Source of the DNA: Blasia pusilla
Lineage: Eukaryota
Assembly: GCA_050084515.1 (NCBI GenBank)
Contig: CM114271.1
Location: forward strand, 49,166,001-49,230,000
Length of the DNA stretch: 64,000 nucleotides
Reading direction: 5' to 3'
Shown: positions 36,509 to 61,500 of the stretch, one piece after another
How positions within the stretch are numbered: position 1 is the stretch's first letter
Layout of the letters: each line of letters opens with the position of its first letter
Translations under genes and position numbers: made by a program
The notes under the pieces: model-generated
Told to the model about the DNA's origin: nothing
What the model saw: only the letters and a program-made list of their open reading frames with translations
The model's database searches: none

Positions 36509-39206
36509 GTTCCTAGTGATGTTGTTTTGACTAACTAATGCGCTAGCTACATTAATGACTCTCATGAATATTATGATCTTTCAAGATTTGTTAGATAGGA
36601 GAGTAATGGTGTTCTTCAATGAAATCCTCATATATTCGGTGACCTAGGAAGACCACAAGGTTCTCCTAAAAGAAGTCTTGTGTCGTTTGAGGAATAAAAA
36701 AATTCGTTGCAAAACCTTCTAAATGTTCCTTCACATCCAAGAAGTGGAAGGAATTGTGACACACATTCATAATGGAAGGCATACGACCCAATCATAAGAA
36801 GCTTGAGGCTATTAAGTTTTGGTCAGTTTCAAGGAATTTGATCAAGAGGTCATAGGTTGGATTTGTAATTTTCTATAAAAGGTACATCTAGGATGTAGCT
36901 ACGATTACTACACCACTCTATGACTTGATGTAGAAAGCAATGGTATTTCGATGATTTTAGGAGTGTGAGGAGGTGTCTAAGCAACTAAATTCATAGTAAG
37001 GAACCCTCCTATACTCAAGTTGTTGGAAATTGGGGTCTCATTCGAAGTTTTGATGGATGCGTCTAACTTTGCAATTGGGGGAGTGTTGAACCAAACACAT
37101 CAACTAGTTTCTTATAAGTTGGCCAAGCTAGAGACAAACTAGCCCATTCATGTGAGAAAGATGTATGCGGTGATTGACTGCCTAAAGAAGTGGGAATTAT
37201 ATTTTTGTTCCATAGTCCGCACTTCAAGGTTATACTGACATCACTAGACAATATTTTTCAATTCAAAAGAAGCTATCACCAAAAAAACTCTATTGGCAAG
37301 AATTCCTAGCAAGATTTGATATGGAAAATTTCTATAAGTCGGGAAAGGATAATGTGATATTTGACGCCTGCAATAGGTGGAAGCAATACTTGAGAGGAAC
37401 TCGGTGAAGGTCATCTACGAGCACAATGAAATCGCCCAAAGAAGGTTAAAGCCTCTGAAGAAGGGAACAAGTTTGAAACATGCTACTCTCATGGATGTTG
37501 TTTTGAAATGGAAGGAACAAAGGATATATGTTTTTTAGAGTTTAAGCACCAAGGTTCTCAAGGTTCACAGTGATGCACCTTGGGTAGGGCATCTTTGTTA
37601 GGTAGTGATCTTGGAGATTGTTAAAAAATAGTCCTATTGGACATCTCAAGCTAGGATACCATAAAATTATGTCCAATCTTGTCTGGTTTCTCAAAAGAAC
37701 CAAATCGACCATGGCAAGACGTTAGGGAAACACTCTTATACCAATTGGTTGTGAGACCATAAGGAAGATGGATTTTATCGTGGGATTATTTGAGTTAGAG
37801 GGTTTAAATTGGATCATGGTAGTGGTATATTGATTTTCAAAGATGGGAGTTTTCAATCTAACTTGAAACATAGTTACAGTTTCAGAGGTAGCTTATCTTT
37901 TTTTGATAATATTTTCAAACATTGGTGTTTACCAAAGTGAGTTAGTATCGGATCGAGACACTAAGTTTATCTTGAAGTTTTGGACATGTCTGTTTGAGAC
38001 ACAAGAACCAAATCTACTCCTAAATTCAGGCTATTACTTGAATATGGCGGGGCAAGCAAAACGTGTAACTTAGCGCTTAAGAAGTATCTATGAGACAACC
38101 AAGCTTTATGTAGATCAAACATATTGGGGAACGCATTTTCCTATGGAGGATTTTTATTAATTTAATAACTCCATGCATTCGGAGATAGGATACATGCCAT
38201 TTTTGTTGGTAGTGGGATGAAATCCTAGAACCTCAACTTTGAACTAGGTTTGAAGAATAGATTAAGTGAGGAGTTCCATGCTGATAGTGGAGGACTTCTT
38301 GAAAAAGCAGTTGTAGGACTATAGAGAGGCTTCTACGTTGTTAGAACGCATTGACATCGCTACAAGTGGCAAGTTGATGTTCATAGGCAAGATGTGCGCT
38401 TTGAAGTTGGAAATTTTGTTTAGATAAGACTAAAGTCTCACCAATTACCTTCAAGTATCTCTAGGAAGATGATGCCAAGATATGAGGGAACCTTTGAGAT
38501 ACTTGAAAAGGTTAAGGAGGTGATATATCAACTGAGATTGTCATTAATTGGAGATGAGGCAAATTTATGATGTGTTCCATGTTAGTGAACTAAAGGTATT
38601 CATGGATGATCAAGACCTCTCTCAAATAAGGCTATTGCAACCCAATCCAATAATAGTCGAAGACCAAGAGGAGTTGAAGTCAACATTATAGTTGATGAGT
38701 GTAGAGTAAAGGGAGGCCTTAGATTAGTAAATGAATATTGAGTGGCATGGAAAGATTATGATTTATGCAAAAGAACATGGGGACTAGAAACTAATCTTAC
38801 TCATGTTGGGTAACTTCTAGAGGAGTTTAGAAGTAGGAAATTATAGGGAAGTTAGATGATGAGACTAGATTTTGAGCGTGGTGGCTTGGTTTGTAGTGTT
38901 TCCATTGGTTGGATTTTTCTCTGCAATATGGCATTAATGGTATGCTAAAACTTGGAAATCCCAAGAATTCAAGAAAGTGTCCAAAATTTGTCTTGAATGA
39001 GGAATGCCTTATGAATGTTTTCATTAGGATGCATGGACTGATGATCATGAATAGAGCATGAGTTGTATGTGTTGCGGCATCATGAGATTAGGTGGATGAG
39101 CTTGACATGGTTTGCCCAAAACTATAGAGGTTTGCCCCTTTAGTCTCTTTAGGGGAGGCCCAACTCAAGTTGGCGAGGATGTCGACTCAGCTAAGTAAGG
39201 GAACAT
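36509..39206 (+). mobile_element. Degenerate gypsy chromovirus 3' portion (RT end, RH, INT, chromodomain), truncated at the arm boundary
   Basis: Remnants ..VFHVSELK, EDQEELEV..EY*VAWKDY..TW; purine tract before TGTGAATAG at 39207, the probable 3' LTR start. Confidence 0.75.
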
Positions 39207-58573: not shown

Positions 58574-61500
58574 ATGTTCCCTTACTTAGCTGAGTCGACA
58601 TCCTCGCCAACTTGAGTTGGGCCTCCCCTAAAGAGACTAAAGGGGCAAACCTCTATAGTTTTGGGCAAACCATGTCAAGCTCATCCACCTAATCTCATGA
58701 TGCCGCAACACATACAACTCATGCTCTATTCATGATCATCAGTCCATGCATCCTAATGAAAACATTCATAAGGCATTCCTCATTCAAGACAAATTTTGGA
58801 CACTTTCTTGAATTCTTGGGATTTCCAAGTTTTAGCATACCATTAATGCCATATTGCAGAGAAAAATCCAACCAATGGAAACACTACAAACCAAGCCACC
58901 ACGCTCAAAATCTAGTCTCATCATCTAACTTCCCTATAATTTCCTACTTCTAAACTCCTCTAGAAGTTACCCAACATGAGTAAGATTAGTTTCTAGTCCC
59001 CATGTTCTTTTGCATAAATCATAATCTTTCCATGCCACTCAATATTCATTTACTAATCTAAGGCCTCCCTTTACTCTACACTCATCAACTATAATGTTGA
59101 CTTCCAACTCCTCTTGGTCTTCGACTATTATTGGATTGGGTTGCAATAGCCTTATTTGAGAGAGGTCTTGATCATCCATGAATACCTTTAGTTCACTAAC
59201 ATGGAACACATCATAAATTTGCCTCATCTCCAATTAATGACAATCTCAGTTGATATATCACCTCCTTAACCTTTTCAAGTATCTCAAAGGTTCCCTCATA
59301 TCTTGGCATCATCTTCCTAGAGATACTTGAAGGTAATTGGTGAGACTTTAGTCTTATCTAAACAAAATTTCCAACTTCAAAGCGCACATCTTGCCTATGA
59401 ACATCAACTTGCCACTTGTAGCGATGTCAATGCGTTCTAACAACGTAGAAGCCTCTCTATAGTCCTACAACTGCTTTTTCAAGAAGTCCTCCACTATCAG
59501 CATGGAACTCCTCACTTAATCTATTCTTCAAACCTAGTTCAAAGTTGAGGTTCTAGGATTTCATCCCACTACCAACAAAAATGGCATGTATCCTATCTCC
59601 GAATGCATGGAGTTATTAAATTAATCTTATTATACTAAAAATCCTCCATAGGAAAATGCGTTCCCCAATATGTTTGATCTACATAAAGCTTGGTTGTCTC
59701 ATAGATACTTCTTAAGCGCTAAGTTACACGTTTTGCTTGCCCCGCCATATTCAAGTAATAGCCTGAATTTAGGAGTAGATTTGGTTCTTGTGTCTCAAAC
59801 AGACATGTCCAAAACTTCAAGATAAACTTAGTGTCTCGATCCGATACTAACTCACTTTGGTAAACACCAATGTTTGAAAATATTATCAAAAAAAGATAAG
59901 CTACCTCTGAAACTGTAACTATGTTTCAAGTTAGATTGAAAACTCCCATCTTTGAAAATCAATATACCACTACCATGATCCAATTTAAACCCTCTAACTC
60001 AAATAATCCCACGATAAAATCCATCGCAACACTTCCTTATGGTCTGCGCGGAATTGGTATAAGAGTGTTTCCCTAACGTCTTGCCATGGTCGATTTGGTT
60101 CTTTTGAGAAACCAGACAAGATTGGACATAATTTTATGGTATCCTAGCTTGAGATGTCCAATAGGACTATTTTTTAACAATCTCCAAGATCACTACCTAA
60201 CAAAGATGCCCTACCCAAGGTGCATCACTGTGAACCTTGAGAACCTTGGTGCTTAAACTCTAAAAAACATATATCCTTTGTTCCTTCCATTTCAAAACAA
60301 CATCCATGAGAGTAGCATGTTTCAAACTTGTTCCCTTCTTCAGAGGCTTTAACCTTCTTTGGGCGATTTCATTGTGCTCGTAGATGACCTTCACCGAGTT
60401 CCTCTCAAGTATTGCTTCCACCTATTGCAGGCGTCAAATATCACATTATCCTTTCCCGACTTATAGAAATTTTCCATATCAAATCTTGCTAGGAATTCTT
60501 GCCAATAGAGGTTTTTTGGTGATAGCTTCTTTTGAATTGAAAAATATTGTCTAGTGATGTCAGTATAACCTTGAAGTGCGGACTATGGAACAAAAATATA
60601 ATTCCCACTTCTTGAGGCAGTCAATCACCGCATACATCTTTCTCACATGAATGGGCTAGTTGGTCTCTAGCTTGGCCAACTTATAAGAAACTAGTTGATG
60701 TGTTTGGTTCAACACTCCCCCAATTGCAAAGTTAGACATATCCATCAAAACTTCGAATGAGACCCCAATTTCCAACAACTTGAGTATAGGAGGGTTCCTT
60801 ACTATGAATTTAGTTGCTTAGACACCTCCTCACACTCCTAAAATCATCGAAATACCATTGCTTTCTACATCAAGTCATAGAGTGGTGTAGTAATCGTAGC
60901 TACATCTTAGATGTACCTTTTATACAAAATTACAAATCCAACCAATGACCTCTTGATCAAATTCCTTGAAACTGACCAAAACTTAATAGCCTCAAGCTTC
61001 TTATGATTGGGTCGTATGCCTTCCATTATGAATGTGTGTCACAATTCCTTCCACTTCTTGGATGTGAAGGAATATTTAGAAGGTTTTGCAACAAATTTTT
61101 TTATTCCTCAAACGACACAAGACTTCTTTCAGGAGAACCTTGTGGTCTTCCTAGGTCACCGAATATATGAGGATTTCATTGAAAAACACCACTACTCTCC
61201 TATCTAACAAATCTTGAAAGATCATAATATTCATGAGAGTCATAAATGTAGCTAGCGCATTAGTTAGTCAAAACAACATCACTAGGAACGTATGGGATCC
61301 AAATATTCTCCTCATCATGATCTTATGTTCATCCCCTTTTTTTATTTAGATTTGGTAATATCCTTGCCGTAGGTCTATCTTGGTAAAATACTTTGACGCC
61401 GCCACCGCATCAAATAAGTCATCTGCCAAAGGCAATGGATACTTGATCTTTATGGTCTTCTTTTTAAGCGCCTTGTAATCCACACACAAGCACATAGACC

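Follow-up and report, generated by a model that had tools for sequence, protein, structure and literature searches.

A gene-bearing palindrome in Blasia pusilla DNA, probably a young inverted segmental duplication

Introduction

How does a gene come to lie in both arms of a large palindrome, and what does this mean for the gene? The question is raised by a stretch of 64,000 nucleotides from Blasia pusilla (GenBank assembly GCA_050084515.1, contig CM114271.1, positions 49,166,001 to 49,230,000 of the forward strand), which we call the window. It contains a palindrome of about 24.8 kb, with one gene of the PF14476 family in each arm. The original prediction for this DNA described an amplicon-type palindrome of a plant nuclear genome, which would either double the dose of the gene or yield small interfering RNA (siRNA). 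With a probability of roughly 60%, we consider it instead to be a real, evolutionarily young, lineage- or haplotype-specific inverted segmental duplication, formed by fold-back or template switching and later subject to gene conversion.

Geometry of the palindrome

A repeat search of the window resolves the inverted repeat into 13 collinear blocks, which tile 36509-46388 against 51399-61289 exactly. Arm A (36509..46388, 9880 bp) and arm B (51399..61289, 9891 bp) surround a single-copy spacer of 5010 bp (46389..51398), inside which a comparison of the window with itself finds no inverted symmetry. The two arms form a single blastn alignment of 9906 columns, with 99.394% identity, 19 mismatches and 41 gap positions. 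A MAFFT alignment of the arms has 24 substitutions and 15 indel events. The predicted coordinates of arms and spacer are exact by all these comparisons. The next largest repeat in the whole 64-kb window is a pair of 354-bp long terminal repeats (LTRs), so the palindrome is far beyond chance.

There are no N bases in the window. No target site duplication (TSD) is found at the ends of the palindrome, since the bases beside 36509 and 61289 share nothing, and each arm contains one PF14476 gene, in convergent orientation according to Pfam and to the gene coordinates. Both features had been anticipated.

Arm B is the original copy

The outer ends of the arms lie in an old retroelement. When stop-free open reading frames (ORFs) are compared with Pfam, arm A has short ORFs in its outer part which match RNase H and integrase-SH3, and an ORF in the right flank matches reverse transcriptase (RT). 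In a tblastn search with the intact pol protein of a chromovirus from the same window, RT residues 1-105 align at 61399->61082 of the minus strand, straight across the border between arm B and the right flank at 61289. Further into arm B, the same search finds RNase H at 60790-60506 and the integrase C-terminus at 59221-58946. A degenerate Ty3/gypsy pol, with protease-RT linker, RT, RNase H and integrase C-terminus (58946..61755, minus strand), therefore extends over this border, from the right flank to the inside of arm B. Part of it is mirrored in arm A (36509-38834, plus strand).

The translated RT frame reads through 61289, in the middle of the conserved RT core, and the same RT begins abruptly at 36509 in arm A. 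Both arms carry identical inactivating stops in RT. A contig of another accession (run X1, described below), 318 bp long, bridges 61074-61391. The left and right flanks show no similarity to each other; the left flank has a separate integrase remnant of its own (35749-35997, minus strand). Because the RT is continuous at 61289 and truncated at 36509 against an unrelated flank, arm B and the right flank are ancestral and arm A is derived. Arm B, the spacer and the right flank are the original DNA, in its original context, and arm A is an inverted copy with two novel joints. The outer one (J1, 36508..36509) connects the left flank with the truncated RT, without visible microhomology on the readable side and without a TSD.

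Two simple origins are ruled out by these data. Non-allelic homologous recombination between two retroelement copies at the outer joint would require homology between the flanks, which is missing. A giant transposable element (TE) or foldback element with terminal inverted repeats (TIRs) of 9.9 kb is incompatible with the missing TSD and with an RT that continues over the boundary of arm B.

The inner joint interrupts a transposase frame

The spacer ORF at 46369-46809, on the minus strand, has 50 homologs in a library of 1.84 billion proteins, the best with E=2e-10. Ten long homologs were scanned for domains: directly after the matched region, two have a transposase domain of Mutator-like elements (MULE) and three an overlapping ZSWIM RNaseH-like domain. 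With tblastn, the first 250 residues or so of the 50 homologs align along 47196->46372, and all the alignments end at 46372-46460 or earlier. Their later parts, including the catalytic domain, have no tblastn match elsewhere in the window. No member of the MULE family is found in the left flank, either among ORFs of at least 100 amino acids over 24017-36508 or among ORFs of at least 45 amino acids over 30183-36400.

The spacer contains, then, the N-terminal part of a MULE-type transposase, about 250 residues long (46372..47196, minus strand), whose frame is cut at the joint with arm A. As all homolog alignments stop there, this inner joint (J2) is a breakpoint inside a MULE-type frame, located after the N-terminal region and before the catalytic domain. 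One stop separates the two ORFs of the fragment. The second ORF (46891-47319, minus strand) has no homolog in a word-indexed protein search; tblastn with the homologs of the neighbouring ORF does reach it. As originally proposed, older transposon sequence is interrupted at the ends of the arms, and this can be refined: the outer boundary lies inside a Ty3/gypsy RT which is truncated only at arm A, and the inner end of arm A truncates a MULE-like frame.

The last four bases of arm A at J2 are TGCA (46385..46388). They are self-complementary, and they equal the first four bases of arm B (51399-51402). The chance of at least four matching bases at J2 is about 0.004.

A transposase fragment between the arms, truncated at one of the joints, might suggest that the MULE-like element itself made the inverted duplication by alternative transposition, involving sister chromatids or reversed ends. 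Inverted duplications produced in this way have been described for maize Ac/Ds. We find this very improbable here: the break lies within the transposase frame and not at the terminus of an element, and there is no TIR or TSD at 51398/51399 or elsewhere. In addition, the MULE-like element appears to be degenerate and, from read depth, single-copy.

The locus in other accessions

Four runs with the same species label have been used: whole-genome sequencing reads (X14), Hi-C reads (X13), RNA sequencing reads (X17) and Logan contigs (X1). The reads were placed on 46250-64000, so that those from both arms pile up on arm B. All four runs represent genotypes other than that of the window. X14 has 235 variant places in 17.7 kb (about 1.3%), with many sites 100% non-reference, and X13 and X1 are like X14 at single-copy sites. 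Arm B, the spacer and the right flank have ordinary depth in all three DNA runs.

In X14, the depth is 3.2 in the spacer (8 bins), 2.4 in the distal part of arm B (8 bins) and 2.4 in the right flank (4 bins). The ratio of non-genic arm B to spacer is 0.76, against the value of 2 expected for two arms. At 46385, 9 X14 reads (agreement 0.99) and 13 X13 reads (agreement 0.82) match the window rightwards only, and leftwards they continue with a common, different sequence, which is not found in the window even when 3 mismatches are allowed. A simple insertion of arm A between the left flank and the spacer is ruled out, as the spacer of other accessions is preceded by a sequence which is not that of the left flank.

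The similarity break in these reads falls within 4 bp of the palindrome boundary, which suggests that the other accessions show the state before the duplication. X14 has neither the J2 joint nor a double arm depth, and the palindrome appears to be absent from at least this accession. In X14 the arm has the depth of a single copy and J2 is replaced by another sequence, which argues for a young, lineage-specific palindrome rather than a conserved amplicon; the structure seems not to persist across the accessions.

Divergence between the arms

The differences between the arms are not evenly distributed. The outer 1258 bp (36509..37766, mirrored by 60026-61289) contain 19 of the 24 substitutions, or 1.5%, and the inner 8622 bp contain five (Fisher p=2e-13). 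A conservative count gives 15 against 2 (p=4e-12). Three of the five inner substitutions adjoin indels, and the rate is 0.02-0.06% in the inner part against 1.2-1.5% in the outer one. Within the outer edge there are 14 scattered substitutions in the first 780 bp (1.8%), followed by 459 bp with none. Then comes a 20-bp cluster (37747-37766) with five substitutions, a 1-bp indel and a 7-bp indel, and an 11-bp indel is found at 38155. Over 59095-61041 the X1 contig aligns with arm B without gaps, which shows that the 7-bp and 11-bp indels are due to deletions on the side of arm A.

Many sites distinguish arm B from X14, X13 and X1, and at these sites the inner parts of the two arms agree. The outer divergence (1.2-1.5%) is close to that between accessions (about 1.3%), which fits an origin of the duplication near the split of the haplotypes. 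The simplest account is a duplication about as old as this split, whose arms have been homogenised since. Homogenisation of the inner 8.6 kb by gene conversion from arm to arm, or by one long repair tract, is a plausible explanation for the pattern.

It is possible that the duplication is instead very recent, that no conversion took place and that the outer 1.3 kb were altered separately, by ectopic conversion of the retroelement part of one arm by a third copy or by repair synthesis which became error-prone at its end. The two to five substitutions in the inner 8.6 kb would agree with this, the outer part is a retroelement which may have relatives elsewhere in the genome, and the complex 20-bp scar at 37747-37766 could mark a template switch. 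Nevertheless, the RT stops common to both arms mean that a donor would have to be a segmental duplicate, not an independent insertion. The divergence is also graded, with 1.8% in 780 bp and then none in 459 bp, not uniform up to one switch point, and its similarity to the divergence between accessions fits a duplication near the haplotype split. We therefore regard a very recent origin as unlikely.

A palindrome with this design also recalls those of sex chromosomes. It has an arm-spacer-arm layout, more than 99% identity and a gene in each arm, its size is close to that of palindrome P1 of the willow W chromosome, and its divergence pattern is compatible with conversion. It might then belong to a non-recombining (U/V) region, as a Y/W-type ampliconic palindrome kept by protective conversion between the arms. 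We give this very little credence: nothing ties the locus to sex or to a U/V region, the depths in the three DNA runs are ordinary, the palindrome seems to be missing in X14, and an ordinary P4-ATPase gene is found about 27 kb away. What stands of the predicted amplicon is an inverted duplication with arms and spacer, in which conversion is plausible; a conserved amplicon does not agree with the single-copy arm and the different J2 of X14.

Is the duplication an assembly artefact?

Several observations weigh against a real, young duplication with later conversion. J1, J2 and a double arm depth are found in no read, all the reads coming from genotypes different from that of the window. The X14 pattern, a single arm with a different J2, would also be expected from a false duplication in the assembly. 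In X13, which consists of Hi-C reads and is uneven, the depths are 6.35 in the distal arm, 4.6 in the spacer and 3.3 in the flank, ambiguous as regards copy number. The likeness threshold of 97% removes some diverged reads and blurs the depth; by our own estimate, only a small part of the 150-nt reads should fail it at a divergence of about 1.3%. The ancestral state of J2 is taken from a 30-nt loose-end consensus, which in the MULE frame reaches a stop after nine codons. Contiguity of 51398/51399 in other accessions is suggested by the lack of a loose end among the rows listed there. In the read table, 61073 is the only outer difference between the arms, and the reads carry the letter of arm A. 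Lastly, something else may lie behind the divergence of the outer edge, for example ectopic conversion by a third copy.

The most direct rival built on these points is an artefact: the genome would contain one arm only, and arm A with its joints would come from chimeric long reads or from a graph error. In X14, where arm depth is 0.76 times that of the spacer, 9 of 9 reads leave the window at 46385. Chimeras formed during library preparation also use microhomology. In addition, the arms differ by many 1-bp homopolymer indels, typical of a poorly polished long-read consensus.

On the other hand, the runs come from a different genotype and do not test the assembly itself. A second copy of the same DNA would lack the 14 substitutions in 780 bp and the 7-bp and 11-bp indels, all confined to the outer edge. 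Two independent non-homologous joints are both needed, and there is no N or scaffold gap. No path through the graph of a collapsed repeat can connect the left end of the spacer with the inner end of an arm. The two arms have different patterns of errors, which points to separate sets of reads behind their base calls. Considering all this, we find an artefact quite unlikely.

Proposed origin

A real inverted duplication could have arisen as follows. A break or a stalled fork inside the MULE-like element, at the present left end of the spacer, would leave a 3' end. This end would pair with the self-complementary TGCA located 5 kb away on the same strand, by fold-back or by a replicative template switch. 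Both routes lead to the same product. Synthesis would then produce a reversed copy of 9.9 kb, which contains the PF14476 gene, and would stop inside the old Ty3/gypsy RT. The new end would become attached to TE-rich DNA at 36508, with no homology to be seen, and the 3' part of the MULE element would be lost from the neighbourhood. Later, the arms would exchange sequence by intrachromosomal gene conversion or by one long repair tract, which would keep or make the inner 8.6 kb near-identical. The outermost 1.3-1.65 kb, at the limit of the homology available to conversion tracts, would drift to 1.2-1.5%. In the end there would be two copies, in convergent orientation, of a PF14476 gene which is expressed. 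The data show the geometry, the polarity, the two novel joints and the 4-bp overlap, as well as the absence of J2 and of double depth in another accession; the whole mechanism is inferred from its end product, as are the later conversion and the intactness of the genes from the differences between the arms.

No new mechanism is involved: inverted segmental duplication by fold-back or template switching is already well known. If the palindrome is real, it would be a natural, bryophyte-grade example of the birth of a gene-bearing palindrome, with breakpoints resolved to the base, known polarity, a visible inverted microhomology of 4 bp and a likely pre-duplication haplotype which is extant in the species. 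Such pairs of haplotypes would allow a direct measurement of conversion tracts and of the stability of palindromes outside sex chromosomes.

The PF14476 gene copies

The long frame of each arm contains a full-length PF14476 domain (Pfam E=3.8e-75, 253.3 bits for a cut-off of 25, profile positions 1-316 of 320). This family is called Chloroplast_duf, or 'petal formation-expressed'. We have found 87 homologs, all of which (87/87) have the PF14476 domain. The named homologs among the best relatives are all from liverworts, with 57-63% identity: Marchantia paleacea, M. polymorpha, Riccia fluitans and Calypogeia fissa. Sphagnum comes next, with about 47%.

Copy A occupies 42320-43620 on the plus strand (1301 nt, stop at 43618-43620) and copy B occupies 55461-54162 on the minus strand (1300 nt, stop at 54162-54164). 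The distance from stop to stop is 10,541 bp. In arm A the homologs align in one frame (42529-43617), from about their residue 58 to their end, so the gene has a single exon.

Neither copy is open as assembled. An open frame of 433 codons needs 1302 nt: copy A is one base short and copy B two. Copy A has a frameshift where one G is missing in a run of G after 42536. Copy B has two 1-bp deletions, near 55033/55034 and 55006/55010, equivalent to 42747 and 42772 in arm A. The bases which arm B lacks are present in the reads of other accessions: in 20 of 20 X14 reads and 12 of 16 X13 reads at 55033, in 15 of 19 and 12 of 14, respectively, at 55006, and in the X1 contig at both sites. At the frameshift site of arm A, the reads of other accessions show no difference from arm B among the indel rows listed.

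Most of these small differences probably have a technical cause. Eight of the eleven 1-bp indels between the arms are differences in homopolymer length, and the reads carry the state of arm A at each of the indels listed for arm B which have read support. The inner 8.6 kb have about 12 indels to 2 clean substitutions, and the outer edge has 19 substitutions and few indels. The indel excess of the inner part is the reverse of real divergence, which is why we read most small indels, the frameshifts included, as consensus errors. Most 1-bp differences between the arms, with the frameshifts of both gene copies among them, are thus most likely homopolymer errors in a repeat which is beyond the reach of short-read polishing, and the two copies would be intact. 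The predicted doubling of the gene holds in so far as it is present in both arms; a doubling of its dose fails if the assembled frameshifts are real. Annotators are likely to call both copies pseudogenes, on the basis of probable homopolymer errors in an unpolished repeat.

The gene also varies in other accessions. The depth over 53354-55721 is 14-23 in X14 and 19-26 in X13, five to seven times that of the spacer, and the reads are uniformly non-reference at at least 15 sites. The X1 contig over the gene region has a k-mer depth of 10.7, compared to 6-9 for its neighbours (about 1.5 times). The copy number of the gene seems to vary between accessions, by an amplification which is independent of the palindrome, and this flags PF14476 as a likely copy-number-variable gene. 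As a separate observation, the amplified stretch (53354-55900, mirrored by about 41900-44430) is roughly the transcribed one; either retrocopies or small tandem units may explain it.

A more ambitious interpretation would combine a young, polymorphic, probably autosomal palindrome of a haploid-dominant plant, which already behaves like a Y palindrome in that conversion between the arms preserves their inner identity and the outer edges erode, with an amplification of PF14476 by at least two independent routes in the species. If this were true, there would be two copies by palindrome here and about six homogeneous copies in X13 and X14, and one might think of recurrent selection on gene dosage. 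For the moment we find this interpretation rather unlikely.

The RNA run X17 has 32 reads in this region, almost all of them in the four bins of 53354-55721, over the gene. From 53946 on, the first mate is on the plus strand, which in a standard stranded library is sense for a minus-strand copy. Both orientations are found in the bin 53354-53945, and in the spacer there is only trace depth (0.01-0.22 in three bins).

Could the palindrome be a hairpin locus, in which read-through of the convergent copies gives double-stranded RNA that silences the PF14476 paralogues? In Arabidopsis, PAI1-PAI4 is a tail-to-tail inverted gene duplication whose copies are close enough for co-transcription into double-stranded RNA. 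Both cases are inverted duplications of a plant nuclear gene. The near identity of the inverted copies, and the five to seven-fold depth of the gene region in X14 and X13, would fit such a role. Unlike in the PAI case, however, the two copies lie 10.5 kb apart tail to tail, with the whole spacer between their stops, and X17, from another genotype, shows no transcript between them. Rfam has no match anywhere in the window. The RNA reads, mostly sense and with almost none on the spacer, argue weakly against silencing, as the run is of a poly(A)-type library from a non-palindrome genotype. The predicted siRNA output is not supported by these data, and we find a PAI-like locus hardly credible.

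Comparison with known systems

The closest counterpart of the proposed duplication is found in human constitutional fold-back inverted duplications. As far as the report on these cases describes them, their spacers measure 766-70,466 bp, with a median of 3,428, and their joints show inverted microhomology of 2-8 bp (Hermetz et al. 2014, PMC3907307). In the fold-back model presented there, the end left by a break anneals to a short inverted sequence of the strand to which it belongs, and the loop becomes a single-copy spacer (PMC3907307). The palindrome described here is like these cases in its single-copy spacer on the kb scale (5010 bp), in the 4 bp of inverted microhomology at the joint of spacer and inverted copy, and in that one copy has kept its original context and two novel joints delimit the other (PMC3907307). 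The sequence beyond the break, lost in the human cases, may be lost here too, as the catalytic part of the MULE is absent from the window. Its spacer falls within about 1-70 kb, one of its copies is ancestral, and its microhomology is inverted if the other accessions are taken as ancestral.

There are also differences. Ours is an interstitial duplication of 9.9 kb, whereas the human ones, in the cases covered by that report, mostly range from hundreds of kb to tens of Mb, the smallest one listed being 10,434 bp (PMC3907307). The far end is joined here to chromosomal DNA and there to a new telomere; one is fixed in a plant lineage and the others appeared de novo in patients (PMC3907307).

The palindromes of sex chromosomes, such as human Y P1-P8 and those of the willow W, share with ours the layout, arm identities above 99%, genes in both arms and a divergence compatible with conversion, to the extent that the willow study covers them (PMC7023750). 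Palindrome P1 of the willow W measures 42.7 kb; for its spacer, the text of that study states 2.6 kb and its Table 2 states 3.6 kb (PMC7023750). In contrast to these palindromes, ours contains a single gene and seems to be missing from another accession; most of them are also much older and larger.

In Marchantia polymorpha, the names of the PF14476 homologs Mp5g00910, 00970, 00980, 01090 and 01100 indicate a cluster on one chromosome. The family is the same and so is its tendency to local amplification, although in our case there is an inverted duplication which includes 8.6 kb of non-genic DNA. Among the papers listed by a literature search, judged by title or abstract, there is none on a nuclear palindrome in a liverwort. 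A search on PF14476 gave nothing relevant; a rice study was among the matches listed.

Other features of the window

Judging from its sequence, the locus is plant nuclear DNA of a liverwort-like organism, as originally proposed: the liverwort relatives of PF14476 with about 60% identity, a P4-ATPase gene and typical plant TEs nearby all agree with this. The P4-type phospholipid-translocating ATPase (flippase) gene has several exons and lies at 3097-8440, on the plus strand. It is followed by a CACTA-type transposase with Transposase_21 and DUF4218 (14960-18191, plus strand). A complete-looking chromovirus of the Ty3/gypsy type (18164-24084, minus strand) is inserted next to or into the CACTA transposase. 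Its 354-bp LTRs are 97.2% identical, and it has long open frames for gag, protease, RT, RNase H and integrase-chromodomain.

The spacer contains two tandem repeats, with 72-bp units at 48552-48823 and 21/42-bp units at 47460-47634. The 72-bp array encodes a proline-rich repeat, within a frame of 327 codons (47952-48935, minus strand) upstream of the MULE-like fragment. A match to a BED-type zinc finger at 49401-49745, also on the minus strand, is weak and below the Pfam cut-off. A minisatellite-like sequence with 21-bp units is found in arm B at 52149-52294, mirrored by 45493-45638, with a 7-bp difference between the arms. Its depth in X14 is about 14, and several length variants are seen in the reads (24-35 letters are inserted at joints 52294->52282). 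The repeat is variable and has multiple copies.

Other accessions have further loose ends. At 49082 they are seen in 5 X14 reads and 14 X13 reads, and at 51629 and 51664 in 10 and 12 X13 reads, respectively, as well as in an X1 contig. A search of the window which tolerated up to 3 mismatches found none of the consensus sequences of the loose ends at 49082, 51629, 51664 and 52149. At 56138/56139 two X1 contigs abut, and each of them continues with 88-89 unlike letters. The structural differences at 49082, 51629-51664 and 56138/56139 are probably insertions or deletions which segregate in the species.

Each arm also contains a self-complementary mini-palindrome of 45 bp (97.8%), at 41754-41798 in arm A and at 55983-56027 in arm B, just upstream of the PF14476 gene.

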